A stretch of 32,000 nt of DNA from Coriobacteriia bacterium (lineage in GTDB: Bacteria > Actinomycetota > Coriobacteriia > WRKU01 > WQUG01), in contig WRFR01000001.1 in assembly GCA_009778715.1 (NCBI GenBank), forward strand, positions 111,428-143,427, in the 5' to 3' direction. Shown here in pieces: positions 1,845 to 16,777 of this stretch; position 1 is the stretch's first letter; each line of letters opens with the position of its first letter. The notes under the pieces are model-generated. The model was not told where the DNA came from, ran no database searches, and saw only the letters and a list, made by a program, of their open reading frames with translations. The position numbers were made by a program, and so were the translations under genes.

Positions 1845-2008
1845 TCGTTTGACTTTTCTATCCGTGCGCCACAGTATGGGCAATAGAGCCAATCGTGGTT
1901 GTCGATATTAAGCACTTTATCGGACACAATGCCATACTTAATAACGGCACATTGATGGCTGCGCACTGCGCTCTCAAAGTTTTTGAGTACTCGTTCTACT
2001 TCAGTCAT
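1841..2008 (-). CDS. Small 55-aa protein with an HxC...CxxC pattern (possible zinc ribbon), function unknown
   Basis: Hand translation gives MTEVERVLKNFESAVRSHQCAVIKYGIVSDKVLNIDNHDWLYCPYCGARIEKSNE. Its ATG overlaps the MTase stop (ATGA) and its stop overlaps the topoisomerase GTG, so it fits the coupled gene train. It is below the track length cutoff. Confidence 0.45.
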   Translation of the reverse strand: MTEVERVLKNFESAVRSHQCAVIKYGIVSDKVLNIDNHDWLYCPYCGARIEKSNE

Positions 2009-2913
2009 TGCTCTATCCTTTCAATTTCTGCGATCGCCTCAAAGATCGGATATATCTGCTGAGGAACAATCGCATTGCCTAAGCATCTAAGTCTGTCCAC
2101 CCGAGCGGAAACCCCATGAGCCATTCGACCCACGTCGGGTTCAGCTGCCCACCGATTTGATCGTTGAGATTGCGGGTCTTGGAAGGATCCTCGAAGCGAT
2201 CTCTTCGGCCCGTCCTGTAGTCCCTGGCCTGAGGCGTGGCAAACATCTTCACATAGGCTGGAAGGCATGGTGAGTGCCTTCTCATGTCGCTTGCTCCTCC
2301 GCTGCGCTTGCAGTCCGAGGCACTCGGCGTCGGAAACAGCTTGACTGCTCCGCTCAGTGTCAGTATCGGCTTGCTGTGATCGCCCCCGCTGTATTGATAG
2401 TCGCCGCGTTCGTTTGAGCGAGGCGTTGGCCACAATAAAACAGCGCTGGCGTTCTTGCGGGGCCGAGACACTGCAAGCTGGAAGTACAAATGCCCGAGCT
2501 TCGTAGTCAGCGGCTTCCAGGTCAGATAACGAGCGATCGAGGCCCATCTTGACGAAGCGAGCAACATTTTCTCCAATGACCCAATCGGGCCTGAGTTCCT
2601 GGATAACTCTAAACATTTCTGGCCAGAGGTAGCGGTCATCATCGAAGCCTCTACGCTTCCCGGCGCTACTGAAAGGTTGGCAAGGAAAGCCCCCACTGAT
2701 AACGGTAGCTGTGTGTAAGCCTGTTGCTTCATAGTAAGTCTCTTTCGTAAGTGTTCGGATGTCTCCGAAGTTCGGAACATCCGGCCAGTGTTTGGCATGG
2801 ACGCGACTGACATAGTCGTCAGTGTCGCAAGAACCGACATTTACAAAGCCAGCCCACTCAGCGGCCATATCAGCTCCGCCGATGCCAGAGAATAGTGAGA
2901 GGTGCGTTAACAT
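2005..2913 (-). CDS. DNA (cytosine-5)-methyltransferase, phage/ICE type, orphan
   Basis: Motif I is LFSGIGG, motif IV is GGFPCQPFS, motif VI is GENV and motif VIII is APQERQRCFIV. The C-terminus reads EPDVGRMAHGVSARVDRLRCLGNAIVPQ (motifs IX/X). The stretch between VIII and IX is low-complexity and R/S/Q-rich. Confidence 0.9.
   Translation of the reverse strand: MLTHLSLFSGIGGADMAAEWAGFVNVGSCDTDDYVSRVHAKHWPDVPNFGDIRTLTKETYYEATGLHTATVISGGFPCQPFSSAGKRRGFDDDRYLWPEMFRVIQELRPDWVIGENVARFVKMGLDRSLSDLEAADYEARAFVLPACSVSAPQERQRCFIVANASLKRTRRLSIQRGRSQQADTDTERSSQAVSDAECLGLQAQRRSKRHEKALTMPSSLCEDVCHASGQGLQDGPKRSLRGSFQDPQSQRSNRWAAEPDVGRMAHGVSARVDRLRCLGNAIVPQQIYPIFEAIAEIERIEQ
2079..2642 (-). CDS. Candidate overlapping ORF in an alternative frame of the C5-MTase gene (PTP-repeat / EWLMGFPxGWT protein). 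The frame is open up to 2840.
   Basis: The track lists a 253-aa ORF at 2079..2840, offset by one nt from the MTase frame. An internal ATGATG at 2642 is preceded by AGAGG 5 nt upstream. The translation reads KCLELSRNSGPIGSLEKMLL..SRWAS..LTWKP..LYFQLAVS..LLWPTP..LFPTPSASD..MFATPQARD..LNPTWVEWLMGFPLGWTDL. This looks like a real protein rather than off-frame noise. Expression is unproven. Confidence 0.35.
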   Translation of the reverse strand: MMTATSGQKCLELSRNSGPIGSLEKMLLASSRWASIARYLTWKPLTTKLGHLYFQLAVSRPRKNASAVLLWPTPRSNERGDYQYSGGDHSKPILTLSGAVKLFPTPSASDCKRSGGASDMRRHSPCLPAYVKMFATPQARDYRTGRRDRFEDPSKTRNLNDQIGGQLNPTWVEWLMGFPLGWTDLDA

Positions 2914-3461
2914 TTAGTACCACCATCCTCAAAATAAAGATGTTCTTGTCGCAACAATGGATCTATGCGTCCAGGTGATATCTCACAGCCATCAACACTA
3001 ATCGTTGAAGACAGCGATGGGCGAAACACCACAACAGCCGACGGAAACGGAGCGCTTGCTTTCGCATTGCTAAACTTAAGCCGACCGCGTATAAAGGTCA
3101 CTTGAGCATTCGGGTTGCCAAATATGTAGTCATGCCAATACCTCGTCTCAGTGCGTGCTGGAATAAGCATCACAATAGTGGCCCCACTCTTTGACTCTTC
3201 CGCTGCCTTTGCTACCCACTTGTCTATCTGGCGACCATAAGGAGGGTTTACCCAGACAGGACCGTAGCCGGTCCATGGCAACGCCAGCGCGTCTTTTTCC
3301 TCGTCAAAGTACACCGGGCACTTATGGTTTTCAGCAGAGGCTGCCGCATCAAGCCTGAAGTGATAGATCTCGTCAAGCGCGTTAAAGAAATCCTGGGGAG
3401 TTTCCCACTCATTGGAGTTCGATGACATGTACACACTTTTATTAATCATCAGCGGCCACAC
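2907..3461 (-). CDS. DNA N6-adenine methyltransferase, phage Dam family, orphan
   Basis: The sequence contains NEWETPQDFFNALDEIYHFRLDAAAS and the catalytic NPPY (VWVNPPYGRQ). The GTG at 3461 follows GGAGGG and overlaps the upstream stop (TAGTG). Alternative ATG starts lie at 3449 and 3428. Confidence 0.85.
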   Translation of the reverse strand: MWPLMINKSVYMSSNSNEWETPQDFFNALDEIYHFRLDAAASAENHKCPVYFDEEKDALALPWTGYGPVWVNPPYGRQIDKWVAKAAEESKSGATIVMLIPARTETRYWHDYIFGNPNAQVTFIRGRLKFSNAKASAPFPSAVVVFRPSLSSTISVDGCEISPGRIDPLLRQEHLYFEDGGTKC

Positions 3462-4429
3462 TACCCTCCGAGGATGTTTTTAGCTAGAGATCCCGCGCCA
3501 GCGATAACGGCGATATCGGCGACAAAGATACTGAGCATCTTAAGTACCGGCAAGATTAGCGTTGTGTTTTGGATCGCAGAGCCAACATCAACAGTAAGGC
3601 CGCCAGACCAGGCAAGCGCCGGGAGCAAACACAGCGCCAAAATGGCTATCGCAAACGAAAGAATAAGCGAGGAGAAATATGTCACAAAGTTTTTCGTTTG
3701 TGGGCGCGTTGTCTCAGATGCGTAGAGCGCCATAGGGATTGATCCAAACGCGGCGCAGAAGTACAGCTTGATAAACCGCACGACAGAGGTGACATAGACC
3801 ACGCAAAAGCCAATTATGACAGCGACCGCCATAATGATGGCATAGATTAAGCCGAGGGTCAGGGTAGAGGGGTCGGCGCCGGTAAAGTTGCCGGCGATGG
3901 TAAGCGTGTCATTGCTTGAGCCTACGATGCCCAGTATTCCTTGATACGTCTGAGTGCTGTAAGAGGCATGGTTAAAGGGATTAGTGTAGGTAAGATAATG
4001 GCCGTTTGGCATCTTACCCGTGATAATAACCTGCCCGATCGACCAGGCGAACTGGATAATGTAGGGCCAACAAAACACGAGGATGAGCAACACGAACCAA
4101 GTAAGGAAAAAGATAATAAGTTCGCTCTGCATCATATCTGGTTTTGATGTGTCGTAGAGCTGAGACTTTTGCTGCCATTCAGTAGCTTTAACGCCAAACA
4201 CGATAAGCAAGACGACTACCGCTACTGGCATCACAGCATACGTGTTGATTTTTATCATGAGATCCCAGATATTACCGTTTTGTCCCAGGGCTTGCTGAAG
4301 TGGCTGGGTGAGTATTGAGTTCTTGACAAGATCAGTAAGGACGGTTTGCGCCGTTTTGATATACCACGCGATCAGAGGCGTGATAAGATTGCTGAGGAAA
4401 TCCGTTATGCCCTGGGTGATAAACGACAT
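3461..4429 (-). CDS. Polytopic membrane protein, VirB6/TcpH-like T4SS channel component
   Basis: The 322-aa protein has multiple hydrophobic helices. It sits in the T4SS gene train, with an ATGA-type overlap to the upstream gene. The assignment rests on topology and position only. Confidence 0.6.
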   Translation of the reverse strand: MSFITQGITDFLSNLITPLIAWYIKTAQTVLTDLVKNSILTQPLQQALGQNGNIWDLMIKINTYAVMPVAVVVLLIVFGVKATEWQQKSQLYDTSKPDMMQSELIIFFLTWFVLLILVFCWPYIIQFAWSIGQVIITGKMPNGHYLTYTNPFNHASYSTQTYQGILGIVGSSNDTLTIAGNFTGADPSTLTLGLIYAIIMAVAVIIGFCVVYVTSVVRFIKLYFCAAFGSIPMALYASETTRPQTKNFVTYFSSLILSFAIAILALCLLPALAWSGGLTVDVGSAIQNTTLILPVLKMLSIFVADIAVIAGAGSLAKNILGG

Positions 4430-5331
4430 CAGAAATCGCCGCCATCGTCGGCAGTAAGCGTTTTAGTAGCCCTGTTATAGACAAGAGCAGCACGGATAGA
4501 TTTTGAGTTGAGCTGCCCAGTAAAAAGCGATACAAACTGGTTTTGCACTGGGTCATAGTGCACCTTGCCAGACCAGGTAACGTCGTCAAGAGTTGGATAA
4601 ATGGACTTGATATATGACGTAAGAGTAGATTTTGCCTTGGCGGCAGTGATACCGGGCATAAGCGCAAGATAGTTGATCGTGGCGGTCGCGGTAGGCTCGA
4701 AAGACTCTATCTGAAAAGCCTCAGCGGAATTAGGATCGACCAGCAGCGCACTATAGGTGGCAGAGGCGATAAACGCCTTGCTCGAAATGTGGTAGAACCC
4801 GTCACTCCCGTTTGTAATAGTAAGATTTACAGGGGCATACTGTCCGGCGAGCTCGATGGTCGCCTTAAGTTTTGCGTCACCTTGCGCTGAAAGCGTTTTC
4901 AAGGTGTAGTGGGTAGGAGGCAGCGCGTTATGCGTCTTCGTGTTCGTTTCAGTGAGCGTAGTAGGGGTAGCAGAGAGCTTGAAGGACTTGTCCTTAGATG
5001 TCCAAGCGGCTTTCGTAAGTATCGTCATCCACGACTGATAGAGCGCCGTCTGCTCTGTCTTATCGCCGACGCCTTCAATAATGACTGAGGCCGGAGGTGT
5101 GGTAGTCGAGTCCAGGCTATCGGAGGCCTTAGCGCGATCCTTCTGTGCAGAAACTGGCGTCGGCCGGCGCGGAGATGGGTGCAACGCTGTGCTCACAATC
5201 TTGAAGCTAACAAACGCGATCGTAACTATAACCAAAATGATGAGGAGTATCAGCACGATTCGATTCAGTATCGTGAGACGGCCCCACATTCTACCGAGTT
5301 TCCTTTTAAGCGGTTCCTTCATGGCAATCAT
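4429..5331 (-). CDS. Membrane-anchored conjugation protein (TcpC/VirB8-like by topology and position)
   Basis: The 300-aa protein has a single N-terminal TM (LTILNRIVLILLIILVIVTIAFVSF), followed by an S/T/P-rich linker and a soluble domain. It lies between the hydrolase and the VirB6-like gene. Confidence 0.55.
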   Translation of the reverse strand: MIAMKEPLKRKLGRMWGRLTILNRIVLILLIILVIVTIAFVSFKIVSTALHPSPRRPTPVSAQKDRAKASDSLDSTTTPPASVIIEGVGDKTEQTALYQSWMTILTKAAWTSKDKSFKLSATPTTLTETNTKTHNALPPTHYTLKTLSAQGDAKLKATIELAGQYAPVNLTITNGSDGFYHISSKAFIASATYSALLVDPNSAEAFQIESFEPTATATINYLALMPGITAAKAKSTLTSYIKSIYPTLDDVTWSGKVHYDPVQNQFVSLFTGQLNSKSIRAALVYNRATKTLTADDGGDF

Positions 5332-5339
5332 TCCTCTCT

Positions 5340-6962
5340 CTACTGCACCGTCACGCGGCCGTAGCCCACAATGACTTCAAGCACTCCGTTATTTTGAAAA
5401 CTTTGATACAGCGGCACTTCATTGACGCCCTCCGCCGGGTCGGCCGCCTGCACAAGTTGGTTGCTACCGATATAGATAGCGACATGTTCTATGGTGGAAG
5501 GATCTGTAGGGTCGCTACCCCAAAATATAAGATCTCCGGGCTGGAGTTCTGCGGCCGTGATTCGCTGAGTTGCGTTATATTGCGCCGCTGAGTTGTGCGG
5601 CAGCGTGATCCCGTAGACCTGGTTATAGGTCCAACACACAAGCCCCGAACAATCAAACGTATCCGGGCCCGCAGCGCCCCACACATACGGTTTTCCTACT
5701 TGCGCAAGCGCAAGCGCCACGACGCCGTTTGAAGCGCCGGTCAGCTGCGCGTAATAGTCTTGAGCGTATCCTTGGCGCGTAGGTAGGCTACTATCACCCG
5801 GGCGTTCATAGTTATAAAAAACATAAGCAGTTGCTGCATCTAAGTCGGTCAGGGCATTGAAACTGGCAAAGTCCATCTCACGCGAAGCATAAGGTGCCGC
5901 AGAGCCAGTTCCTGTGATCTCGGCCAGCATATAATCAAGCTGAATGTAAATATCGCTAAAAGGTTTACCTTGTGAAGCTGCGTAGTCTCGTAGCCCTTGA
6001 GCGCGACCCTGATACCATTGCACAATGCCGGTAGCTCCAATTGAATTGGTGTCAGTCGGATCCATACCCGATTCTTGTTTCAGGTTGCCCATTATGGCAG
6101 CTGTATGTAGCGCGTCAAATCCATGAGACATAAGATAGTTGGCCACAATCGCCTCGTTGCCAGTAAGCGATCCGGCATTTTGCTGGCCGTTAGCGGCGCC
6201 TACAATTCCAATGAGGATAATGGCCACCACAGCCAATACCGCGATGATAGCAACGACAAGCGCCCCTACGCCGAGAACAGCGCCGAGGCCAGCAGAGGTA
6301 GCGCCTGAAGCTGTGCCAGAGGCAGCAGCAGTCGCGCTACCGGACGCGCTGCTTGCGGCGGCAACCGTGCTGGTTGCCTCCATAGTTGATGCTGTTGTCG
6401 CGGCCCCTTCAATAGCGATCGCGCCATCTGTAGCTTCGGCCATAGCTAAAGTATCAGCGGCACCGTAAGCGGCATCAGCGGAGCCTGCGGTAGCGGCCGA
6501 CGTCTCAGGTCCGGCACCGGCGCCGAGCCGGTTAATAAGTGAGTGGCCATAGCTCAAACCTTGCTGACCATAGGTGGCGCTTTGATAAAGACTTTGTGAG
6601 TCTTCATCGTCGCCGGCCAGAAACGATACGGCTACCACGTCAGCTATTCGACGTTTACCAAAATTGACTGCTCGATTTTTCTGTTTGGCAATCTGGCGCT
6701 TGACAAAACCACCTTGAGCAACAATATCTTCGGCTTCATTATTTGTGCCAGAGGCGGCTAGAAAGCCGCCAGGCATTGAACTGTCAAGCTCAAGGTCAGG
6801 CATAGAAGTGCCCGCATCTGAGGTAAACATCTCAGCGAAGTTCACCTCAGCAAGCCCGGTAAGCCCTTCGAGCTCATCAGGCCCGGAGGATTGCGTCGGG
6901 AAGAAGATATCGTGGCTAAGGCCTCTCTCTTCAAGTGCTTGTTCGAGCGCGTCGTCAGACAT
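5340..6962 (-). CDS. Conjugation-associated bifunctional peptidoglycan hydrolase (lysozyme-like domain plus NlpC/P60)
   Basis: An A/S/T-rich low-complexity stretch and a central TM are followed by AAIMGNLKQESGMDPT..GIVQW (phage-tail-lysozyme/transglycosylase-like). The C-terminus reads GKPYVWGAAGPDTFDCSGLV..IEHVAIYIG (NlpC/P60 Cys-His). Confidence 0.85.
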   Translation of the reverse strand: MSDDALEQALEERGLSHDIFFPTQSSGPDELEGLTGLAEVNFAEMFTSDAGTSMPDLELDSSMPGGFLAASGTNNEAEDIVAQGGFVKRQIAKQKNRAVNFGKRRIADVVAVSFLAGDDEDSQSLYQSATYGQQGLSYGHSLINRLGAGAGPETSAATAGSADAAYGAADTLAMAEATDGAIAIEGAATTASTMEATSTVAAASSASGSATAAASGTASGATSAGLGAVLGVGALVVAIIAVLAVVAIILIGIVGAANGQQNAGSLTGNEAIVANYLMSHGFDALHTAAIMGNLKQESGMDPTDTNSIGATGIVQWYQGRAQGLRDYAASQGKPFSDIYIQLDYMLAEITGTGSAAPYASREMDFASFNALTDLDAATAYVFYNYERPGDSSLPTRQGYAQDYYAQLTGASNGVVALALAQVGKPYVWGAAGPDTFDCSGLVCWTYNQVYGITLPHNSAAQYNATQRITAAELQPGDLIFWGSDPTDPSTIEHVAIYIGSNQLVQAADPAEGVNEVPLYQSFQNNGVLEVIVGYGRVTVQ

Positions 6963-6966
6963 GTTG

Positions 6967-9900
6967 TTATGCCCTTATTCCAGCGGCAATAGCTGCGGCC
7001 TCACGCTCAGCTGCACGCGCGGCGGCCTCACGCTCTCCTGGATCGGTAGAGAACAGCTTATAGGTCTCAGAGTTCTTTTCCTCGTCGCTAAAGGTGTTAT
7101 TGATATGAACGATAACGTCATTGAACTTCGCTACAGCGACGCCTTGCGGGGCGGCGAGCAGCAAGTTGGCGTCTGTTTCTGAAAGATGAAGACGTGTGAC
7201 AAGCCCCTCAGTGTCCTTGTCACCAAACAGATCAAGGTCGGCTTGCTGATACATAATCACCGAGGCACTATCAGAAAGTATGTGCTTTAAGATCGGGTGC
7301 TCAAGAAGGTGTGCGGCATTTTGAGTGATTCCACAGGGGATAAGCCCGAAACTGCGACCCTCGAACCAGAACTTACGGGCATACTCAAGAGCGGTGGGGG
7401 AGTCGCCTACTTTATGAAACTCGTCGATATAGACATACGTCTCATAGCCGTGTGCCTGGTTATAGAGAAGCAGATTCCAAATTTGCATTAGCACAACGAG
7501 CATGCCGAAAACTTTCAGCGATGGGTCAAGCTCTGATATATCAAAATCGATCAGGCGCGCCGAGAGATCGACGTTTGTGTGATGAGCAAAAACGTCCAGT
7601 GCGCCTTCTGCAAAGATAGAGAAGTCATCAGCAAGGTCCAGCGCTTTTGAGGATGGATCCCGCCGGACGTTTTCATAGAACTCAAGCAGCGTGGGCATAG
7701 CCTCAGCAACGCCGTAGTTTTCTTTTTTGAGCTGGTCATAGCAGGCCTTAATGGCACGCGATATGATGCCCTGTTGAGCGTTAGAAAGCGTCTCGCCGGG
7801 CCTTGCCGCTACTGTTGACAAAATATAGATCAAGTCAGCGGTTCTCGATGTGATAGGATCACGACCGGCGACCTGATAGTAGGATGGTATATCGAAAGGA
7901 TTGATATGTTCGGTACTGTCAGCGGTACCATGCCAAATGGTGCCGCCCCAACGCTCTACCAGAGGGTTGAATTCATGGTTTTTCGTGTCAAGAATATAGA
8001 CACGGGCTCGTGGCTGGCGCATGAGAACGCCGCTTACCTCGACATCGACCCCGAAAGTTTTTCCGAATCCCGGCTTACCGAAAACCATCTCTGAGCGGTT
8101 GTTCGAGTTGCGGCGATCGTAGGTAATAAGGTCGCCGGTTTCCTTGACGCGGCCATAAAAGATGCCGCCTGGCTCCTGTACTTTCGTGTTGGTAAAGGGC
8201 ATGAATATGGCGGCCTCATAAGAAAGGAAAGCGCGATTGAGCTCTACCATATCGTTGCCAGTAGGTAGCATTGTGTTAAAGGCCTGAAGCTGCTGGCCAG
8301 AAAGTGGCGCGATGTTTTGGCGCGATTGATGAGTTTTCGCTTGCAGAGTAAAACGATTGGTATTTAGCTCTTCAAGCGTGTCGCCATAGATACAGAGTAA
8401 AAGGGTTCCCAAAAACAAGTTCTGATCCTTTTGCTCCATGGCGTCTATCTGTTCATTGACTTGCTTTATACGGTTTTGCATGAACGGAGTTACGGCCATT
8501 GAAGGCAGCACGCCATGCGTTGAGTAGTCCTGCATGTTCTTACCGATACGCGAATCCATGTTGCGGAGTTTGCTATACAGTTCGGCCGTGGCTTCGGTGT
8601 TATCGATAGCCGTAAAAGTTAGCGTGGCCGCCATCGGAATATCAAGGTTAAAGATATCTGAGAGAATGGTGTCTTTTGGCCGACGAGGAAGGCCACCCTT
8701 GTTCGGCCAATAGAGCGCCTGGGCGTACTTATCGCCAGCCATAAAGATACGCTTATCGCCGCCGGGGTAGAAGTCGTAGCCACCGATAGGCGCGAGATAA
8801 TCTTTCGCATCCAGTCCGGCGAGATCAGCCATCGTGAAGTTATAGTCCTCCGGCACTTCTCCGGGCGCCGTGTACTTAAGCATTACTTTAAGGCGTTCTA
8901 CGCCATCAAGTACGCGCGGGTTGGCACGGATAAGTTCAAGCTTTTCTGAGGCAAGCCGTACCGCCTGGGCAAGCAGTGGTCGCGCCTCTTCAAGGGTATA
9001 GGCCGTAACCGCAATAGTGAGGTATCGATACCTCTTGACGTTATGCTGGGTTTCGGAAAGCGCTGTCTGAAGTCGTGCGTTGTCCTCGTCGGCAAAGACC
9101 TGCATATCCGCCTGATCTTGATCTGGGGCCTTAAACTCTTCAAAAAGCTCTCCGCGTGTCACAGGTTCATTGATGATATGGACCTTGAAGCGCGTACCCG
9201 GCATGAATCCGTTGTATAGCGCAATGAGTGTGTTATAAATATAGGCCTGATCATGTTCGCGATTGTAAAGGTAGTTCACGTCGTCAAAGGCAACAAGGCG
9301 ACTGAAGACGCAATCCCCGTCATGGCTGATCCCATCAGGCAAAACATTACGGAAGTAAAGGCAGCCTTGTGCCGTGTTGGCACGCAGAAGCGCGCGCTCC
9401 TCATAGTCACGCGCCAGATCTGTGAAGTCGTCATCAGAAAGAGCGGTAAGCTTTGCTACCTCATCGCCGACCGGATCAGTGACCTCATCCGGCGTTTCAG
9501 GCGTAGTGTCGGCGGTCGCGTTGTTGCTTTGAGGCTCTGGTAGCTTCTTATCGTCACGCGCAAGGTCTACGGGGCCTATATCAGAGGAGGTTTCAAGCGC
9601 TGCTATCTCACAAGCAACCGGAGCAAGCGCTGCATCCGGCATCTGAAGGGCACTCTCGCTATCGCTATCCACGTTCGTACTTAGTAGCGCTGTCGCGATC
9701 GGTTGCGCGGATATATCGGGCTTTAAGGGCTCTGGTGTCGTGACCTCATCGCTGGCCACGGTTGTGTATTGTGGCTCTGAACTCTCTGGTTGCCTGTATA
9801 TATCGGGCTTTAAGGGCATCGATGGGGCGGCCTCATAGCTGGGCAGCTCGATGGCTTCATCTAACATCTCAGGCGCCGTCGTTTCGCTGCTCGTGTTGCG

Positions 9901-10029
9901 CCTTTGTGCCTCGGGTTGCTTGCCCGTATCGGACTTTAAGGGCGCTGATATCGGCGCTTCGAGTTCTTGCTGCTGCATGATCAGTGCGTATTGCGGGTGT
10001 TTTTGTTTTCTTTTTCTGTTGTGGCTCAT
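6967..10029 (-). CDS. VirB4-family T4SS ATPase (TcpF/PrgJ-like) with a long acidic/proline-rich N-terminal extension
   Basis: Walker A is GKPGFGKT and Walker B is VYIDEFH. The preferred start is the ATG at 10029 (MSHNRK), 7 nt after GAGGAG. The track ORF starts at 10044. Confidence 0.9.
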   Translation of the reverse strand: MSHNRKRKQKHPQYALIMQQQELEAPISAPLKSDTGKQPEAQRRNTSSETTAPEMLDEAIELPSYEAAPSMPLKPDIYRQPESSEPQYTTVASDEVTTPEPLKPDISAQPIATALLSTNVDSDSESALQMPDAALAPVACEIAALETSSDIGPVDLARDDKKLPEPQSNNATADTTPETPDEVTDPVGDEVAKLTALSDDDFTDLARDYEERALLRANTAQGCLYFRNVLPDGISHDGDCVFSRLVAFDDVNYLYNREHDQAYIYNTLIALYNGFMPGTRFKVHIINEPVTRGELFEEFKAPDQDQADMQVFADEDNARLQTALSETQHNVKRYRYLTIAVTAYTLEEARPLLAQAVRLASEKLELIRANPRVLDGVERLKVMLKYTAPGEVPEDYNFTMADLAGLDAKDYLAPIGGYDFYPGGDKRIFMAGDKYAQALYWPNKGGLPRRPKDTILSDIFNLDIPMAATLTFTAIDNTEATAELYSKLRNMDSRIGKNMQDYSTHGVLPSMAVTPFMQNRIKQVNEQIDAMEQKDQNLFLGTLLLCIYGDTLEELNTNRFTLQAKTHQSRQNIAPLSGQQLQAFNTMLPTGNDMVELNRAFLSYEAAIFMPFTNTKVQEPGGIFYGRVKETGDLITYDRRNSNNRSEMVFGKPGFGKTFGVDVEVSGVLMRQPRARVYILDTKNHEFNPLVERWGGTIWHGTADSTEHINPFDIPSYYQVAGRDPITSRTADLIYILSTVAARPGETLSNAQQGIISRAIKACYDQLKKENYGVAEAMPTLLEFYENVRRDPSSKALDLADDFSIFAEGALDVFAHHTNVDLSARLIDFDISELDPSLKVFGMLVVLMQIWNLLLYNQAHGYETYVYIDEFHKVGDSPTALEYARKFWFEGRSFGLIPCGITQNAAHLLEHPILKHILSDSASVIMYQQADLDLFGDKDTEGLVTRLHLSETDANLLLAAPQGVAVAKFNDVIVHINNTFSDEEKNSETYKLFSTDPGEREAAARAAEREAAAIAAGIRA
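9711..9943. repeat. Dispersed direct repeats ATATATCGGGCTTTAAGGGC within the VirB4 5' region
   Basis: An identical 20-mer occurs at 9711-9730 and 9798-9817. A degenerate copy lies at 9926-9943. On the minus strand these encode PLKPDI / PLKSD. Confidence 0.8.
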
Positions 10030-10375
10030 GGGAAATCTCCTCATTATAGAAAGGGCACAAATCCTCCCAGGAATTTGTAATCACATACGGACGGAATGGG
10101 CGGCGTTGAACATAGAAGTACACTTCAAGCCACTCAGAAAACGGCAAGTGATCGAAGTGGATGAAACCAGCGGCGATGATGCACGCGGCAACTACGATAA
10201 AAACTACCACCACAACAGGAACCGGCAGCTTGAGCACGCCAATACCGACCACATTAATGACAACTGACGCGCCAAGAGCCGTGAGAATGTACTTGACCTT
10301 ATCGCGACCAATTCCGAGGTTGGTGACAGTTTTCTCGTAGCTATAGGTGTCCTCATGTAGTGTAATCGGCTTCAT
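9869..10375 (-). CDS. PrgI/VirB3-like small membrane protein
   Basis: An N-terminal HEDTYSYEKTVTNLGIGRDKVKYIL is followed by two hydrophobic segments. The gene lies immediately upstream of VirB4. Its basic C-terminal tail of about 53 codons overlaps the VirB4 start in another frame. Confidence 0.65.
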   Translation of the reverse strand: MKPITLHEDTYSYEKTVTNLGIGRDKVKYILTALGASVVINVVGIGVLKLPVPVVVVVFIVVAACIIAAGFIHFDHLPFSEWLEVYFYVQRRPFRPYVITNSWEDLCPFYNEEISHEPQQKKKTKTPAIRTDHAAARTRSADISALKVRYGQATRGTKAQHEQRNDGA

Positions 10376-10734
10376 GAGAGCATACCCTTGCAGCCAGTGC
10401 CAATCCAGGCAGCAACAGCAACGACGATCAGTCCAGCGACGATACCGCCAGCATGATTAGCTTGCAGGGCCGCGCTCCCATGCTCCTCGTTAGTGGACAT
10501 GGCGTAATTTTTAACGTTAGTGGCCGTATACATAGCGCCAGGGACCGCAAAGATTGCAGCGATCAGTAGCAGTGTGCCGTTAAGTGTGCCGTCATAGCCG
10601 CCTGATACCGAGTTAAGGTAGTTCGCGGCATAGGCCGCGTGCGGTGCGATGAGTGTCGCGGCGCCAGCAAAAATAGCTGGTATCCACGTATACTGTTTTC
10701 TTACTTTACTTGCAAATGTGTTTAGGGTTTTCAT
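10372..10734 (-). CDS. VirB2/TrbC-like small secreted membrane protein (putative)
   Basis: The ATG at 10734 follows GGAAGGA and lies just after the T4CP stop at 10751. The signal-like N-terminus ends in AYA, and two hydrophobic helices are separated by a polar loop. The longer track ORF (to 10998) overlaps the T4CP gene and is not favoured. Confidence 0.5.
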   Translation of the reverse strand: MKTLNTFASKVRKQYTWIPAIFAGAATLIAPHAAYAANYLNSVSGGYDGTLNGTLLLIAAIFAVPGAMYTATNVKNYAMSTNEEHGSAALQANHAGGIVAGLIVVAVAAWIGTGCKGMLS

Positions 10735-10750
10735 ACTATATCCTTCCTGT

Positions 10751-12964
10751 TTAACTCTGAGGTCTTTTTTGCCGGTACTCTGTATGGATATATGAGACAT
10801 CGCTGCCATCCTTGCCGGATACATAAACGGTGCTACGAGCGCCAATGGGCCGCGCACGGGTTGAGTGTTGCCGCTCCTCGGCGCTATGATCTGGAAACTC
10901 CGGCACGTAGGTATCGAGGTATTCAGCTTTTTGTCCAATGCGCAAGCCGATATAATCGCCGTTTTTAATGCCAAAGCGGCGGCCGTGTCTGATGGCATAG
11001 GTGCGCTGGCCTATCTTGAAATGCACGCTAGGAAGCAACCAGGGCAGAAGCAGGGTAGGGCCGCCATACTGAATCTTTGGCCAAAGTGGGCGACGGTGCC
11101 CGGGATCCACATAACGGTAGAGCGAGTTATGCTCATTGATATAGCGCTTGTCGATCCTTGAGTTAAACGAGGATACCTGAATAAGTAAGTGAGAGCGTGG
11201 GATCCTGCCAACCTCAGAAGGATCTAATAAAGCGCGGGAATCTATTTGGTCGCGTGCCACATCGGTTGACTGTTTTTCTCCACCGCGCGACGTTACCGCA
11301 TCATGGGCAACAGTCAGCTCGCCGGCACGTTCGCTAAAGGCCTTATTGACCTCATAAGAGCCAGTACCTAAAGTGACCCAGACGCCGCAAAGCTCACGGA
11401 TTGTTTGCGCGGCCTCACGGCCGTAAAGCTCCTCAATTTTTACAAAAGAGAGCGTAGTGATCAGCCAATAGAAACCATAAGAACGCGACACCCCGATATT
11501 GTTATCGAGGTCAGGAACACGCCCAAAAGCCAAGAACTCATCGATCATAACTTCGATCAGCCCGGCCGCTTGACCACCATGGAAGTTATCAACCAGATAG
11601 ACTATACGGCTCATAAGCTGGTTTAAGAACATGCCATTTAAGAAATGGAACGTAGAGTTTCGTGCGTCAGACACAACGAAGATGACCGTTTTCTTACCCG
11701 GATCGAGCAACTTGTCGAAGTGAAACTCATCGTGGCTCAAAAGCGTCTGAATACGGTCGGCCGTAAAACGCGAGAAGGAGGCGTGAACCGATCCCACAAT
11801 AGAAGCTACCGTTTCAGGAGATCCGATATTATCCTTGAAGTGTTGCCACTGTCTTACGACCCAGTGTTGCGGTTGTGCTACCTCATAAGTGATAAAACCA
11901 GCCGCGTCAGCGTCTGGCACGCCAATGCCGACATAACGCTTGCCGGTCTTTACCTGGTTAATAAGCCGCTCAAAAAGTGAAATATCTTGACCGGGATCAG
12001 GTAGCAGCATATCGACAAGCTCCAAAAATGTTTTCATAGAACGCGATCCAGGGCAGAAGTAGTGCATATAGCCGCCGAGACATTGGATGATGATACGTTT
12101 TTGATCCTGAAAGAACTGCATATCGCCAGTAATATTTTTGTCAACATCTTTTGTGCCATTGACGATCATATCGGCGATCCGCATAATCTCGACCTGGGGA
12201 TCGAGCGTTGATTTATGCCCCGGGCTCAGACCTGCCTTATCATCAAGGCATGCCCACATATCCCAGCAGTTAGACTCCAGCGGATTATAGGTATTAAAGA
12301 CCTTAATATCAAAGCCCAGAAACTTGAACAGCCATCCAACGCGACGCAAAATATCGCCTTTGGTGTCCCCAATAACAAGCAGCTTCAAAGCCTTGTTTTT
12401 TACTGTGCGAAGGATCTGCGTCATGATGTAGGTTGACTTACCACCGCCAGGCTCAGCAGTCACAAACACAAAGGGGAAGCGGAAATACTTATGGCTTATG
12501 GTAGTAGCCGCAAGACCAAGCCGCGTCCACTTACCAAGCTGCCAATTATCTGAAGGATCATCGCGATCAGCAAAATTGCGCATGGCCCACCAGGACGCAA
12601 GGCGTGCGGAACCTTTTTCCTGGCCATACATTTTATTACGGCGAGAATGATCCCAGAAGTAGCGCCACAAGAAAGAAACCCAGATATAGACAACCAGGAC
12701 GCCAGCAAATATAAGACCGATATGGCTTAAGAACACCAAGCGCGGGAATGTTACCGCTTGATGAAACATTGCGCCAGTTATAAGGACAAATCCTTGCTTG
12801 TGTAGTATCACGTCAAAGAAGCGCCCTGCATAGATCGTGCGCGAAAATGCCACGAAAAGACCGACAACGAACAGTGTCGTTACTCCGAACAAAAACGGAT
12901 TGCGAATAAGCCCCCGCAGTAGCGGCCGCGCGTGCTTTGATGTCTGTGAAGGTACGGCAGTCAC
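10751..12964 (-). CDS. Type IV coupling protein (VirD4/TraG family)
   Basis: N-terminal TM helices are followed by a Walker A TAEPGGGKST and a Walker B-like VMIDEFLAFG. The protein is 737 aa. The GTG start directly abuts the upstream stop. Confidence 0.85.
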   Translation of the reverse strand: MTAVPSQTSKHARPLLRGLIRNPFLFGVTTLFVVGLFVAFSRTIYAGRFFDVILHKQGFVLITGAMFHQAVTFPRLVFLSHIGLIFAGVLVVYIWVSFLWRYFWDHSRRNKMYGQEKGSARLASWWAMRNFADRDDPSDNWQLGKWTRLGLAATTISHKYFRFPFVFVTAEPGGGKSTYIMTQILRTVKNKALKLLVIGDTKGDILRRVGWLFKFLGFDIKVFNTYNPLESNCWDMWACLDDKAGLSPGHKSTLDPQVEIMRIADMIVNGTKDVDKNITGDMQFFQDQKRIIIQCLGGYMHYFCPGSRSMKTFLELVDMLLPDPGQDISLFERLINQVKTGKRYVGIGVPDADAAGFITYEVAQPQHWVVRQWQHFKDNIGSPETVASIVGSVHASFSRFTADRIQTLLSHDEFHFDKLLDPGKKTVIFVVSDARNSTFHFLNGMFLNQLMSRIVYLVDNFHGGQAAGLIEVMIDEFLAFGRVPDLDNNIGVSRSYGFYWLITTLSFVKIEELYGREAAQTIRELCGVWVTLGTGSYEVNKAFSERAGELTVAHDAVTSRGGEKQSTDVARDQIDSRALLDPSEVGRIPRSHLLIQVSSFNSRIDKRYINEHNSLYRYVDPGHRRPLWPKIQYGGPTLLLPWLLPSVHFKIGQRTYAIRHGRRFGIKNGDYIGLRIGQKAEYLDTYVPEFPDHSAEERQHSTRARPIGARSTVYVSGKDGSDVSYIHTEYRQKRPQS

Positions 12965-14344
12965 CTACATCGCCACTTTTGGAGCCGGAGTATGCTTTGG
13001 GATGTTTATCGCAGGTTGTACTTTATGAGATGCGTCGGCAGCCTCGCGTAGCACTGCTTCTTTGCGCTCTTGATAGACCGTGTTTTTGATAGCAGCGTCT
13101 GAAGCGTGGAGTTTGTTATGGCTCAAATCATCTAACGCGCGGCGAAGCGCGTCCTGGTTAGAAGCCTGGCAGCGCAGCAGATACGACCCGTCTGGTTCCA
13201 AATGTGCATCAAAGACGATGCCACGCTCCATTAAAGCGACCGCGTAATCGTCAATATCAAACGCTACTACAGCGAGCGGGAAATCAAGGCGATCCGCGAT
13301 CTCGAAGGGTTTACGTTGGAGGGCATGTTGTCTGAAATGGGTAGCAGAGTTCTTAAGATCTTGCTGCTGGCGTATATAGGCCACACGCTCAGCTGCGAAC
13401 TTTTCATCTAGCACCTGCGCTGTGATCGTATGCAAGCTTGCGTCCTCTCCAGTAGCGGCAAGTACCTGCACGGTCCCCGAATCACCCAGTCGGCGCGCTT
13501 CAAGCTGAAGCCCTGCGTCCGTGCCCCGTTTCATGACCTCGGCAGCCGCGGCGCTATCCAGGACAAAGTACGGACGATCGAGAGCGTAGGTGTAAGACAC
13601 TTCTGGCACATTATCAGTGATTGACTCTACAACCGACTCTACATAGGGCCGCAGATCCTCGCTGAAGAACACGTCAACAGCATCTTGTCCGGGAACCTCA
13701 TAAAAGTCGAAGTCCTCAAGTCGCGGAAGCGCGTCGGTAGGTTCAAGACCAAGGTCGGCATAAGCCTGGGCGATATTGCTCTGAGCAGAAGCAGTCGCAT
13801 CGTAGGCGTTTTGTGCCCGGTCGCGTGACTCTTCATAAGCGCTACCAGCAAGAACGATATCGGTTTCATCAGCGCTCGTGATACGACCATCGGTTACAGC
13901 CTTAGTCGTTAAGCTACGATCAAGATGCTCTGGATCAAGAGCAAGACCATACTTCGCTACCTGAGAATTAAAACGATTTAAAGCGGCATTTTGTGCACTG
14001 CTGCGATCACGTGCGGCCGCGTCCAAATCGACCTGTTGTTCACGCAATGTCGCAACATCATTAAGCCGCTTTTTAAAGACCTCGCAATCGGCGGTAGCAA
14101 GGGTGATCCTGCACTGATCTTGTACCCAGGTATTACCCCGGACTTCCTCTAGGCGTGCTGGTAGATCACGTTTTTGCGCGTCAAGTTGCGCTTGCAATTC
14201 TTGACCCCAGACAGCGGCGCCCGCTTGGCGTTCAGCGGTACCTGTTTTAACCCGTGATGCTACCTTGCGCCCAAGACCTCGCAACGCCTCGGTTGAATAC
14301 CTAAAAAGCCATTCAACGACTTGATCTTCTGCATCAGCTGGCAT
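12965..14344 (-). CDS. Acidic soluble protein of unknown function, translationally abutted to the coupling protein
   Basis: The 459-aa ORF has no TM segment and no catalytic motif that I recognise. It has a coiled-coil-like N-terminal half and two similar alpha/beta-looking modules in the C-terminal half. Confidence 0.8.
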   Translation of the reverse strand: MPADAEDQVVEWLFRYSTEALRGLGRKVASRVKTGTAERQAGAAVWGQELQAQLDAQKRDLPARLEEVRGNTWVQDQCRITLATADCEVFKKRLNDVATLREQQVDLDAAARDRSSAQNAALNRFNSQVAKYGLALDPEHLDRSLTTKAVTDGRITSADETDIVLAGSAYEESRDRAQNAYDATASAQSNIAQAYADLGLEPTDALPRLEDFDFYEVPGQDAVDVFFSEDLRPYVESVVESITDNVPEVSYTYALDRPYFVLDSAAAAEVMKRGTDAGLQLEARRLGDSGTVQVLAATGEDASLHTITAQVLDEKFAAERVAYIRQQQDLKNSATHFRQHALQRKPFEIADRLDFPLAVVAFDIDDYAVALMERGIVFDAHLEPDGSYLLRCQASNQDALRRALDDLSHNKLHASDAAIKNTVYQERKEAVLREAADASHKVQPAINIPKHTPAPKVAM

Positions 14345-14356
14345 GATTACTACCTA

Positions 14357-14521
14357 CTAGCGGCGTCCCCGGCGCGTGCCGCCGCCGAAGGCGCGAGTGC
14401 CGCCACCACGTCCAGCTTTGCGCTTGCGCGCCGACCTTATTATGATAATGACGCAGACAACGATAAATCCGACGCAGACAACGCCGAAGACCCATTGTAT
14501 TGTTTGTATAAATGCGTTCAC
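14357..14521 (-). CDS. Small 54-aa single-TM peptide with an Arg/Gly-rich tail
   Basis: A GTG at 14521 lies 7 nt after AGGAG. The hand translation is MNAFIQTIQWVFGVVCVGFIVVCVIIIIRSARKRKAGRGGGTRAFGGGTRRGRR. It fills the gap between ssb and the 459-aa gene and is below the track cutoff. Confidence 0.5.
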   Translation of the reverse strand: MNAFIQTIQWVFGVVCVGFIVVCVIIIIRSARKRKAGRGGGTRAFGGGTRRGRR

Positions 14522-14551
14522 TGCTTTTCTCCTGTTCTTTAGACTCTTTTA

Positions 14552-14962
14552 CTAAAATGGAATATCTTCAGTCAAGACCTCGACTGACGGTGCATCTTGG
14601 CTGGGCGGCTCATAAGATGTGCTGGCTTTGCCGTCACGCGCTGACATAAACTCGACATCATCAGCCACGATCTCGACCTTGCTACGCTTATCACCTTCTG
14701 ATGTCTGCCACGAGCTCCAACGCAAGCGACCGGACACCGCGACCTTCATACCCTTGTGCAAGTAACGCGAGAGACCTTCGCCGCGCGCACCCCAAACCAG
14801 GACATCGAAGAAGTTCGGAACGTCTTCCCATTGATCGGTTTTCACGTTCTTCTTACGATCATTGACCGCGATACCGATTTGTAGCACCGTACTGGTGGCG
14901 GCCTGGCGCAGTTCCGGATCCCGCGTGAGATTCCCTGTTACAAATACTCGATTGATACTCAT
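14552..14962 (-). CDS. ssb: Single-stranded DNA-binding protein
   Basis: The sequence starts MSINRVFVTGNLTRDPELR and has an OB fold. The C-terminal acidic tip ends in DIPF. The ATG at 14962 follows GAGGAAGGAG. The track start at 15046 is rejected. Confidence 0.92.
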   Translation of the reverse strand: MSINRVFVTGNLTRDPELRQAATSTVLQIGIAVNDRKKNVKTDQWEDVPNFFDVLVWGARGEGLSRYLHKGMKVAVSGRLRWSSWQTSEGDKRSKVEIVADDVEFMSARDGKASTSYEPPSQDAPSVEVLTEDIPF

Positions 14963-15067
14963 ATGAACTCCTTCCTCTTGTAAAACTATCCTTTGCTCTT
15001 TTCCCCAGCCTCGCCAAGAGCTGCCGGCACATCTGCTCGGCTCCATGTCTAATAAAATTCAGCGCGT

Positions 15068-16777
15068 CTACAAATGAGCTTTCAGCGTGGGTTTTTGTGC
15101 GGCCATACCTTCAAAAATGTTTGCTGGAGTTTCGCTTTGTTTTGCGGTCTCATGGTCCTGCTCGGCCTGGGCCGCACCGAGACGAGCAGCCAGTACCGGC
15201 TGCTGGCTTTCAGCGGTAGTGGGGGAGTTGATAAGATCGAGACCAAGGGTCGTCTCATCAGTTATCATGCCGGTAGTGATAACGCCAAAAAGATCGGTAT
15301 TGCGAAAATCAGCTCCGCGACAATCTGCTCCAGCAAAGCTTGTAGGCCTGGCCCCGTTACGGTCAGGATGATTGTTGAAGTGCGCAAGCTGAAAATTCGC
15401 ACCTCTAAGATCAGCTCCGGAAAAATCAGCACCTAAGCACTGGGCGCTGATGGCGCATATATTGTGGCAGTCAGCATCGTGGAGATCTGCATTGAAAAAC
15501 TGCATACCAATGCAATTAGTGTCAGACAGATCAGCGCGAGCGCCTTCTTGTTCTGAAGTACTAAGCCACAAGTGATGAGCTCTGAGAATTTCATTAAACT
15601 CATCATCGTGTTGCTGAACTTTTAGGATCCGCATATCGCCGCTCCTTCTGATTGATGGTTCGCGGTCCTGTAAGTTTCTGATGCCAGTAGCGACTTCACT
15701 TTGTTTTGCAGCGTCATGGTCTTGCTCGGCCCGAACTGCACCGAGACGCGCGGACAGTTCTGGGCGCTGGGTTTCAGCAGGCTTGGCGCTAAGCGTCTTA
15801 TCAATACGCTCTATGAAATCCTGGGCAGCTTTCTGAATGGTCGTAAGCGACTGTTGGAGTTGCTTCAAATCCTTATCTTCTGCCCACCCGGCGATGTATC
15901 CGAAACTGTAATCAGATGTATCAATACCTAAATACCCGGAAACAATATAGGCAACGCTTTCGGCCTCAAGCTCCTTAGCCGATTCACTGAGATCATTGGA
16001 CAGATCAGCATGAAGCGTGGCGTGGGTCATTTCATGAATAAGTGTCTTGATTGTCTGTTCTTGCGACATATCACTTCGAACAACAAGCTGGCCGGTGTTC
16101 AGGTTTTGCAAAGCGTTGATGCGAGGTGCCAGGAGAACAAAGTAACCGTTCGCGCCATTATTAAGGTAGGCAAAATCATCTTCTGTACCGAAGTCCACAG
16201 GATAGGGAGAAATTTCTACTAAGGTGTCGATAAGCCTGTCATAACCTGCGACGGCGCCGGTGAGCTCCGTGGCAAGATAGGCTTCTTTGGGTAAAGGTTG
16301 TCCTGATGTTTGTGAAACATCAAAGACCGACACCGGAACATAACTCATCCAGGAAAGCTTTGTTTCATACTTTCCATCCGGGCGTTGTGTGACTTTCTTT
16401 GCTGCATCCTCACTACTTAGATCCTCTGACTTCATCACATCTTTAATCGCTTGATCTTTTGTCACGTAAAGATAAGTTGACGTTCGTTTCGCTGGCGCGA
16501 GGATCCGGATACCATGCTCACCTTTATTGACCATGCGCTTATGCTCATTTTTCCAGGTGTTAAATCCTGCGATGTACTCAGCGTCAGGACGTTGTAGCAT
16601 TATAAGAATAATATTGCGATGAGAGTACTGGTGAAAGCGGGCATGGAATTTGAGATACTTCTCATAGCGTCCACCGTCGGCAAAAATATCTTTTGTGCCA
16701 GATTCTAACTGAGCAAAGAGATCCTTGATCTCAGCGGCGCGCTTATCATCGCGTGTATGTTGAGGAACTGTAGCCAT
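15068..16777 (-). CDS. ardC: ArdC-like anti-restriction protein: an N-terminal ssDNA-binding domain plus a zincin HExxH protease, fused to a C-terminal pentapeptide-repeat domain
   Basis: The ArdC-N signature is YSHRNIILIMLQRPDAEYIAGFNTWK..VNKGEHGIRILAP. The metalloprotease signature is LIHEMTHATLH..EAESVAYIV. The C-terminus carries about 14 A(D/N)LXX pentapeptides (ADLSDTNCIGMQFFNADLHDADCHN..ADFSGADLRGANFQL..CRGADFRNTDL). Confidence 0.85.
   Translation of the reverse strand: MATVPQHTRDDKRAAEIKDLFAQLESGTKDIFADGGRYEKYLKFHARFHQYSHRNIILIMLQRPDAEYIAGFNTWKNEHKRMVNKGEHGIRILAPAKRTSTYLYVTKDQAIKDVMKSEDLSSEDAAKKVTQRPDGKYETKLSWMSYVPVSVFDVSQTSGQPLPKEAYLATELTGAVAGYDRLIDTLVEISPYPVDFGTEDDFAYLNNGANGYFVLLAPRINALQNLNTGQLVVRSDMSQEQTIKTLIHEMTHATLHADLSNDLSESAKELEAESVAYIVSGYLGIDTSDYSFGYIAGWAEDKDLKQLQQSLTTIQKAAQDFIERIDKTLSAKPAETQRPELSARLGAVRAEQDHDAAKQSEVATGIRNLQDREPSIRRSGDMRILKVQQHDDEFNEILRAHHLWLSTSEQEGARADLSDTNCIGMQFFNADLHDADCHNICAISAQCLGADFSGADLRGANFQLAHFNNHPDRNGARPTSFAGADCRGADFRNTDLFGVITTGMITDETTLGLDLINSPTTAESQQPVLAARLGAAQAEQDHETAKQSETPANIFEGMAAQKPTLKAHL
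15131..15216. repeat. Direct repeat copy 2, flanking the pentapeptide-repeat module (partner at 15695-15780)
   Basis: An ungapped hand alignment of 86 nt gives 68 identical positions. The two copies encode ARLGAAQAEQDHETAKQSE and ARLGAVRAEQDHDAAKQSE. Confidence 0.8.
15695..15780. repeat. Direct repeat copy 1, flanking the pentapeptide-repeat module (partner at 15131-15216)
   Basis: Same alignment as for the partner copy. Confidence 0.8.

Follow-up and report, generated by a model that had tools for sequence, protein, structure and literature searches.

The DNA under study is a stretch of 32,000 nucleotides (hereafter "the window") from a Coriobacteriia bacterium (assembly GCA_009778715.1, contig WRFR01000001.1, positions 111,428 to 143,427 of the forward strand). 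On its minus strand, to which all features described below belong, it carries a gene related to C5 cytosine DNA methyltransferases, within which a second, same-strand reading frame is fully open. Frame A (2913..2005) is, according to the list of open reading frames (ORFs) and its translation, a 302-amino-acid (aa) ORF for the catalytic subunit of a C5 cytosine DNA methyltransferase and is termed alpha. Frame B, the +1 frame of A, harbours the gene termed beta (2079..2732), which encodes 217 aa from a family-conserved ATG at 2732 to a TAG at 2081-2079, the frame being open further up to an ATG at 2840. A preliminary description of the locus had offered three explanations for the double frame—an overprinted gene, programmed frameshifting and a pair of compensated frameshifts—of which the first is supported by conserved nesting, a start signal belonging to beta itself and selection on both frames.

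Alpha shows the features by which C5-methyltransferases are recognised, namely motifs I, IV, VI and VIII in a single chain, a large-domain fold and a C-terminal motif X; the motifs read in frame A by the preliminary description (LFSGIGG, GFPCQPFS, ENV, QERQR and motif X) are all present in the translation. Motif I (FSGIGG within LFSGIGG; 2875..2892), which serves S-adenosylmethionine binding, lies upstream of beta and is single-coding. Motif IV with the catalytic Cys (GFPCQPFS; 2668..2691) overlaps the N-terminal module of beta (…FLANLSV…), and the segment from motif VI (ENV, 2563-2571) to motif VIII (QERQR, 2443-2457), i.e., 2443..2571, overlaps a conserved beta segment reading 'EKMLLxSSxWxS…LTWK…'. 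A low-complexity, non-conserved and stop-free spacer (approximately residues 164-254; 2150..2424) joins this catalytic core to motif X (LGNAIVPQ, residues 278-285; 2059..2082), which is near-invariant in 68 homologs. The low-complexity stretch had been noticed before and is real; its proposed place between motifs VIII and IX has to be amended to between motifs VIII and X, frame A having no motif IX.

Profile comparisons and structure prediction agree on the extent of the catalytic core. Frame A matches Pfam PF00145 (DNA_methylase; E=1e-37) with residues 3-183, corresponding to profile positions 2-181 of 324, and reaches 109 bits against TIGR00675 (cut-off 100.65), again confined to the first ~180 residues, while the match to PHROGs family phrog_363 covers the full length (E=4e-84). 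An AlphaFold model, built from a 68-sequence alignment, has a predicted local distance difference test score (pLDDT) of ~90 for residues 1-178 and 280-302, with 86-95 for motif X, and of 30-42 for residues 188-279, which have no secondary structure. In a structure search, the model matched M.HhaI (E=1e-12, root-mean-square deviation 2.9 Å over 168 residues) and M.HaeIII (PDB 2uyc and 1dct, respectively) over ~168 of 327 residues, that is, the large domain only, and the alpha profile aligns to residues 12-181 of M.HhaI (E=1e-22). According to profiles, conservation and the AlphaFold model alike, the alpha chain has neither a target-recognition domain (TRD) nor motif IX between motifs VIII and X, and a motif IX-like sequence sits in the other frame. 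Alpha is, thus, modelled without a folded small domain, residues 188-279 forming a predicted disordered spacer that leads to motif X.

Concerning the start of alpha, there is a 7-nt overlap (ATGTTAA) between the ATG at 2913 and the stop of the Dam-type methylase gene that lies upstream, which suggests translational coupling, and homologs start at the equivalent of this codon. The protein deposited at NCBI (MCL2881386.1, 287 aa) starts at Met16, by which motif I (LFSGIGG) is lost (2869-2913 in the window).

Frame B has no stop over 253 codons (2840..2079), just as the preliminary description had stated, while the +2 frame of alpha contains 19 stops and its longest open run is 48 codons. The 217 codons from ATG 2732 can be divided into three parts. 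An N-terminal module (residues 1-95; 2448..2732), whose invariant residues include G25, L58, S65, L70 and W72, is overprinted on alpha motifs IV-VIII. It is followed by a variable region (2163..2447) with three (W/F/A)(P/T)TPxxxD modules, LLWPTPRSNERGD, LFPTPSASD and MFATPQARD, the repeats for which frame B had originally attracted attention, and by a C-terminal motif, GGQLNPTWVEWLMGFPLGWTDL (2088..2153). The bases of the latter read EPDVGRMAHGVSARVD in alpha: EPDVGRMAHGVSARVD in frame A and NPTWVEWLMGFPLGWT in frame B are encoded by identical nucleotides and, as had been surmised, both correspond to genuine motifs in databases. The TAG that ends beta (2081-2079) is made from the alpha Leu-Gly codons (tTA Ggc) at the start of motif X, as it is in approximately half of the loci surveyed. 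In the JGI annotation of the same contig, a 162-aa piece of frame B is called.

Frame B reads like a genuine protein, as had been claimed, and it belongs to a very large family. From ATG 2732 onwards, it matches 5,935 proteins at E<=1e-3, most of them 200-300 aa long and mostly covered end to end, none of which carries a Pfam domain. The number of cluster representatives retrieved in an exhaustive search with a beta profile was 40,152 at E<=1e-3 and fell to 24,430 at E<=1e-10 and to 3,111 at E<=1e-30. No Pfam or NCBIfam model covers beta, and it matches PHROGs family phrog_1008 ('DNA methyltransferase'; E=5e-36). The earlier suggestion that WPTP..D repeats and an EWLMGFPxGWT ending mark methylase-associated proteins of phages and integrative and conjugative elements (ICEs) is, thus, borne out, with ~40,000 cluster representatives and a PHROGs family of that name. 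In PHROGs, phrog_363 (alpha) and phrog_1008 (beta) appear as separate, unrelated entries, both labelled 'DNA methyltransferase', with no sign of linkage as one overlapping-frame enzyme.

The nesting of the two frames was followed in 160 loci, sampled from viral contigs and genomes of Bacillota, Proteobacteria, Bacteroidota, Chlorobiota, Acidobacteriota and Patescibacteria. Of these, 154 carry the frame-B C-terminal motif through which they were found, and in 133 of the 154 the frame-B ORF is fully nested in a -1-offset ORF with motifs IV, VI, VIII and X; most of the loci have a third frame with an open run of only 4-17 codons. The nested loci come from isolates, metagenome-assembled genomes (MAGs) and phages across phyla, at protein identities of 35-50%. 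DNA searches brought up relatives in Lactobacillus, Lacticaseibacillus and Paenibacillus phages, and in Paenibacillus phage Likha two nested coding sequences with +1 offset are annotated, both named 'DNA cytosine methyltransferase'. Our literature search found no large-scale description of the nested alpha/beta arrangement in phages; a Paenibacillus larvae phage paper lists two methylase genes and is silent on nesting. Stops in frame B of close homologues would, according to the preliminary description, speak against a real gene; the relative nearest to the window (63.5% identity in alpha) nevertheless has a conserved frame B with 227 open codons. The DNA of the window and of this relative is 76% similar over the core and 89% over motifs IX/X, similarity being undetectable across the TRD region only, and the number of WPTP modules varies between relatives, including between these two. 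Loss of DNA similarity in the TRD together with a variable module count fits a swappable specificity module.

The recurrence of the layout bears directly on the view that the two frames are an artefact or a sign of decay, i.e., that a compensating pair of indels, from sequencing or assembly error or in a pseudogene, has split a once single-frame gene. Damaged or fused variants do occur in metagenome assemblies and some genomes (L006, L030, L059, L092, L111, L114, P0122-P0139). However, the same two-frame layout in 133 of 154 diverged loci, purifying selection on both frames and the lack of a single-frame joined relative among the top matches to a spliced query (see below) render this explanation, and with it the compensated frameshifts proposed initially, extremely improbable.

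Beta also has a start signal of its own. In a survey of 120 non-redundant loci, the first frame-B start codon lies 35-50 nt (mode 47) before the PCQ codons of alpha in ~85% of cases, typically preceded by a strong Shine-Dalgarno (SD) sequence, e.g., GACAAAGGAGAGCTTTT followed by ATG, and by a frame-B stop 0-5 codons upstream. In the window, ATG 2732 stands exactly at the modal position, 47 nt before the PCQ codons, with the purine-rich, SD-like GAAAGAGA (2739..2746) 7 nt upstream; the closest relative has TTG in place of this ATG. The sole peculiarity of the window in start layout is that the usual upstream frame-B stop is missing, and because of this the ORF extends to 2840. Regarding the start proposed in the preliminary description, AGAGG 5 nt before an ATGATG (2639..2652; beta residues 31-32) is indeed present and ATG 2642 could serve as an additional beta start; the family-conserved start is, however, ATG 2732, and neither 2840 nor 2642.

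Selection on the two frames was traced by the entropy per codon position in an alpha-led codon alignment of 104 loci. Outside the beta overlap, alpha third positions have an entropy of 1.67 bits versus 1.16 bits inside, at equal amino-acid entropy (1.39 vs 1.42); conserved four-fold-degenerate codons yield 1.89 bits (n=12) outside versus 1.12 bits (n=23) inside (p=3e-5). Along the gene, third positions are saturated at the single-coding motif I (1.8-2.0 bits), suppressed across motifs VI-VIII, and saturated again past the beta stop, while the amino-acid entropy of the alpha spacer amounts to 2.8-3.8 bits. In a beta-led alignment, the N-terminal module over alpha motifs IV-VIII has an entropy of 1.60 for beta and 1.19 for alpha, alpha being dominant with beta constrained, too; in the variable region the values are 2.39 for beta and 2.84 for alpha, and in motif IX, near-invariant in 104 loci, 1.08 and 1.70, beta being dominant in both. 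Over the WPTP blocks, beta positions 1 and 2 are near-invariant and the wobble position is saturated at 1.5-1.9 bits, which is the normal pattern of coding in the beta frame; over the TRD and motif IX regions, what alpha encodes is close to random. Both frames are, hence, under selection, and dominance passes from one to the other twice along the gene. The alpha sequence 'EPxVGRxAxGxP' is largely a shadow of the beta sequence 'NPxWVEWLMGFP'; a sequence related to it, before motif X, also stands alone in two relatives (L097 and L021).

These data can be set against the notion of a shadow ORF, according to which frame B is untranslated and open merely through the amino-acid and codon composition of alpha. 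Alpha is the dominant constraint over motifs IV-VIII, and among 20,000 synonymous-codon shuffles of frame A from the window, a +1 ORF of at least 217 codons appears in 0.15% (at least 253 codons in 0.045%). Yet G+C is merely ~53%, and outside the beta span alpha carries ~7 stops per 100 codons in the +1 frame, with 6.65 before beta and 7.49 after it; at the family background of 6.65, the chance of 217 open codons is 3e-7. The +1 frame has zero stops over 24,659 overlapped codons, partly by construction, beta being defined as an ORF, and the meaningful measure is the beta length of ~237 codons against a background of one stop per ~15 codons; the stop density of the +2 frame is constant at 5-6.4 per 100 codons. 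Moreover, frame B and not frame A is selected over the TRD and motif IX, and the SD sequence and ATG are conserved. We consider a shadow ORF scarcely credible.

Programmed frameshifting, in which a +1 shift after motif VIII and a -1 shift before motif X would yield a single canonical chain (motifs I-VIII, TRD, IX, X), is attractive insofar as an A-to-B-to-A splice restores the canonical motif order and the window has a T-run (TGTTTTATT) just past motif VIII. Such a mechanism leaves unexplained, however, why frame B should be conserved and free of stops over the ~95 codons that precede any shift site, with its own conserved SD sequence and ATG and a stop just before, and why frame A contains no stop over ~100 codons which would never be read after a shift. 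In addition, the nucleotides after motif VIII are unconserved (about 1.4-2.0 bits), with no conserved slippery site, and M.EcoHK31I, a two-subunit enzyme of similar layout, is active as two separately expressed polypeptides.

Variant relatives are informative in this respect. In Brevibacillus borstelensis (L021/L123), Brevibacillus sp. (L106) and a Bacillota MAG (L097), N-terminal module, TRD, motif IX and motif X are all encoded in the beta frame, which runs into motif X (e.g., …GFPIGWTDI…RLKACGNAVVPAH). In these, the alpha frame ends right after motif VIII, with abundant stops beyond, and beta still overlaps the 3' half of alpha. Since frame A closes exactly in those loci where motif X is in beta, it appears to be kept open only when it reaches motif X; this natural control argues that alpha is translated straight through and beta is made separately. 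Furthermore, ~28 of the top 120 matches to an A-to-B-to-A spliced query are alpha-to-beta fusion ORFs that end at the beta stop and are all without motif X, their junctions being scattered from motif VIII to the late TRD. The fusion-type gene calls are metagenome proteins (P0122-P0139, P0145, P0149, P0159, P0192, P0197), some of them found on several contigs; such fusions probably stem from sporadic indels or from errors in assembly, an uninterrupted ORF being left only because neither frame is closed. Among the top matches to the spliced query, no single-frame relative joins a beta-type TRD, motif IX and motif X to the alpha core, and compared with Pfam the A-to-B-to-A chimera covers no more of a profile than alpha alone. 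Taking together the separate beta start, the open frame A, the lack of a conserved shift site and the scattered fusion junctions, frameshifting is very unlikely. The arrangement is, hence, not due to chance, error or frameshifting.

Further variation concerns the ends of beta and the copy number of the locus. In L010, L013, L031, L039, L042, L060 and L076, the beta ORF overruns the alpha stop, with a tail such as …GWTELGHSETQSFRKS…, and in L076 beta has a C-terminal extension of ~140 aa; the beta 3' boundary is, therefore, not fixed in the family. An enterobacterial example of the layout is found at 2398-3135 of locus L167, a prophage of E. coli PT62 (NZ_CP090448.1), which was the sole DNA match in E. 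coli and a weak one. There, the Prokaryotic Genome Annotation Pipeline (PGAP) calls only a 245-aa alpha, and the +1 frame is open across the whole gene, beginning within a few codons of the alpha start (MSWLFSQALAEEY…) with a different N-terminal region, ending …GQLNPQWVEWFMGWPIGWTEL and then overrunning the alpha stop. Alpha/beta loci with match statistics identical within each genome occur at five places in a Roseovarius MAG (OX638333.1; L160-L164) and at three places in Lihuaxuella thermophila (L102-L104), where they seem to reside on a multi-copy mobile element or prophage.

What, then, may beta contribute to the enzyme? Its C-terminal motif (NPxWVEWLMGFPxGWT) is, judged by pattern and position, a probable motif IX of C5-methyltransferases: NPTWVEWLMGFPLGWT has the pattern of a motif IX and lies where one would be expected, and in L021, L097 and L106 motif X follows it in the same frame. 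The preceding variable region would be the TRD, and the N-terminal module may be the part that docks onto alpha, by analogy with the reported need for the beta N-terminus in M.EcoHK31I; the allocation of docking and DNA reading to the beta parts is one that we infer. A different possibility is that frame B is translated and has nothing to do with methyl transfer, beta being a DNA-binding, regulatory or anti-restriction protein in its own right. Solved structures and curated families show no significant similarity to beta, the beta N-terminal module is without counterpart in canonical C5-methyltransferases, and there are anti-restriction genes in the neighbourhood, all of which would suit such a protein. 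On the other hand, alpha has no motif IX and no folded small domain and should, by canonical architecture, be inactive alone, while the motif IX-like sequence at the beta C-terminus stands where it would be expected, immediately ahead of motif X; some relatives have the essential motif X in beta, and beta and alpha are essentially always encoded together. An independent role of beta is, therefore, considered unlikely.

With this, the locus is best explained as a two-polypeptide C5-methyltransferase, composed of an alpha catalytic core and a nested beta, of the M.EcoHK31I type, to which we assign a probability of roughly 85%. The established features are that both frames are open and under selection, that the beta start signal is conserved and that alpha is, by prediction, devoid of a folded small domain. 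Several points weigh against this interpretation. A BLASTP comparison of the L097 beta, which carries both motifs IX and X, with M.HhaI brought their motif IX sequences into alignment at only E=0.57; the beta profile found no match among PDB sequences at E<=10, and hhalign of beta against M.HhaI was likewise without a match. Modelled by itself with AlphaFold, beta had a low pLDDT of 62, and a Foldseek search with that model returned noise and was uninformative. In the window, ATG 2732 is preceded by an SD sequence, GAAAGAGA, that falls short of the strength usual in the family (AAAGGAGAG), and the N-terminal 'QLTLFP' segment of beta is degenerate. For the locus in the window, translation of beta and its association with alpha are presumed, and the likeness to M.EcoHK31I is drawn from published descriptions of its architecture. 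A further discrepancy concerns the placement of the TRD, which is taken up below.

Two-subunit C5-methyltransferases are known, albeit rarely described. In M.EcoHK31I from E. coli HK31 (Lee, Kam & Shaw 1995), the beta sequence is contained in full within that of alpha, in a different frame of the same strand; according to passages of PMC2836561 and PMC3404938, its alpha contains motifs I-VIII as well as motif X, its beta motif IX, both being required for activity. As stated in PMC2836561, beta requires its N-terminal part to associate with alpha, and Met codons inside beta are suspected to be extra starts. PMC3404938 lists no exceptions to monomeric C5-methyltransferases other than M.AquI and M.EcoHK31I; M.AquI from Synechococcus sp. 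PCC 7002 (Karreman & de Waard 1990, cited therein) is a two-subunit enzyme split inside the variable region.

The locus in the window resembles M.EcoHK31I in having two predicted polypeptides, a nested same-strand beta, what is probably the same division of motifs and an alpha of similar length (309 aa in M.EcoHK31I, 302 aa in the window). The beta of M.EcoHK31I is reportedly 176 aa long, compared with 217 aa here. The two differ in the TRD, which is predicted in the literature to reside in the alpha of M.EcoHK31I, with beta carrying motif IX only, whereas in the window the TRD is placed in beta: selection between motifs VIII and IX is on the beta frame, and the alpha counterpart is predicted to be disordered. 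They also differ in context, M.EcoHK31I being part of a restriction-modification system and the window gene looking like an orphan methylase in a conjugative element. The division of M.AquI (alpha I-VIII, beta IX and X) is exactly that of L021/L123, L097 and L106; in contrast, in the window motif X stays in alpha and beta is fully nested, with a ~95-aa N-terminal module overprinted on the alpha catalytic motifs. With M.HhaI and M.HaeIII, the alpha core shares the fold and motifs I-VIII, and their motif order is regained upon combining alpha and beta; in M.HhaI, however, the small domain (TRD and motif IX) is in the same chain, while in the window it would be supplied in trans from the other frame. 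The layout is, thus, of a known kind, the little-cited M.EcoHK31I type, which is here found to be very widespread and mostly unannotated.

For the two-polypeptide enzyme, the following course can be envisaged. Alpha would be read straight through in frame A, yielding the catalytic large domain (motifs I-VIII), a disordered spacer and a motif X helix that would fold back on the core. Translation of beta would begin within alpha from a separate ribosome-binding site, with ATG 2732 and perhaps ATG 2642 in addition as start codons, and proceed in the +1 frame to the TAG at 2079. Beta would add to the enzyme an N-terminal module, by which it probably docks onto alpha, the modular WPTPxAxD region as the probable target reader, and motif IX. 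By analogy with M.EcoHK31I, alpha and beta would then assemble into an active enzyme, which probably methylates the DNA of the conjugative element and, in this way, could protect it from restriction enzymes of the recipient cell.

The genomic neighbourhood (3461-16777) is a conjugative element. Directly upstream of alpha/beta and in the same operon lies a gene for a Dam-type N6-adenine methylase (2907-3461; PF05869, E=1e-29), the element carrying, thus, two different orphan-looking methylases adjacent to each other. Downstream, the ATG of a 55-aa ORF with a CPYCG motif (1841-2008) overlaps the alpha stop by 4 nt (ATGA); this ORF has no Pfam or PHROGs match. Further upstream are encoded a multi-pass membrane protein without family match (3461-4429), a lysozyme with NlpC/P60 hydrolase (5340-6962), a VirB4-like ATPase (6967-10044), a VirD4/TraG-type coupling protein (10751-12964) and an ArdC-like anti-restriction protein composed of ArdC-N, M78 peptidase and pentapeptide-repeat parts (15068-16777). 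No restriction enzyme gene is evident beside alpha/beta, which makes a protective role as an orphan methylase likely. A cyanobacterial host, at which a HIP1 site (GCGATCGC) and pentapeptide repeats might hint, was rejected, HIP1 not being enriched (3 sites versus 1.4 expected) and the contig being listed under Coriobacteriia by NCBI.

Beyond the single locus, we lean slightly towards a broader view, in which it is one of a very large and hitherto practically unnoticed class of C5-methyltransferases from phages, ICEs and plasmids that obligately consist of two subunits, with the specificity subunit overprinted on the catalytic gene. In this class, the ~95-aa docking module of beta would have arisen de novo in the +1 frame of motifs IV-VIII, the 'EPxVGRVAxGxP' of annotated phage Dcm-like proteins would mostly be a shadow of motif IX, and specificity would be swappable by recombination of beta modules, alpha tolerating any stop-free spacer. 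If this holds true, C5-methyltransferases made of two polypeptides would no longer count as rare exceptions but as common, and it might be necessary to reconsider the TRD of M.EcoHK31I, which the literature places in alpha.

Under-appreciated so far appear to be the scale of the family, the location of the target-recognition region in beta instead of alpha, and the annotation of a single frame. Gene callers accept one of two fully nested same-strand genes, which leads to a systematic failure to call both; in E. coli, beta goes uncalled by PGAP, and alpha is overlooked by other pipelines. In methylome work and REBASE-style prediction, an alpha cloned without an intact beta frame would probably lack activity, and one would look for specificity in the wrong protein. 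Naturally split methyltransferases are, as described in a passage of PMC2836561, used as platforms for targeted methylation, and for such engineering the family offers thousands of natural alpha/beta pairs. In evolutionary terms, it represents a large, well-sampled case of same-strand dual coding over more than 200 codons, which is useful for testing methods for the detection of overlapping genes.

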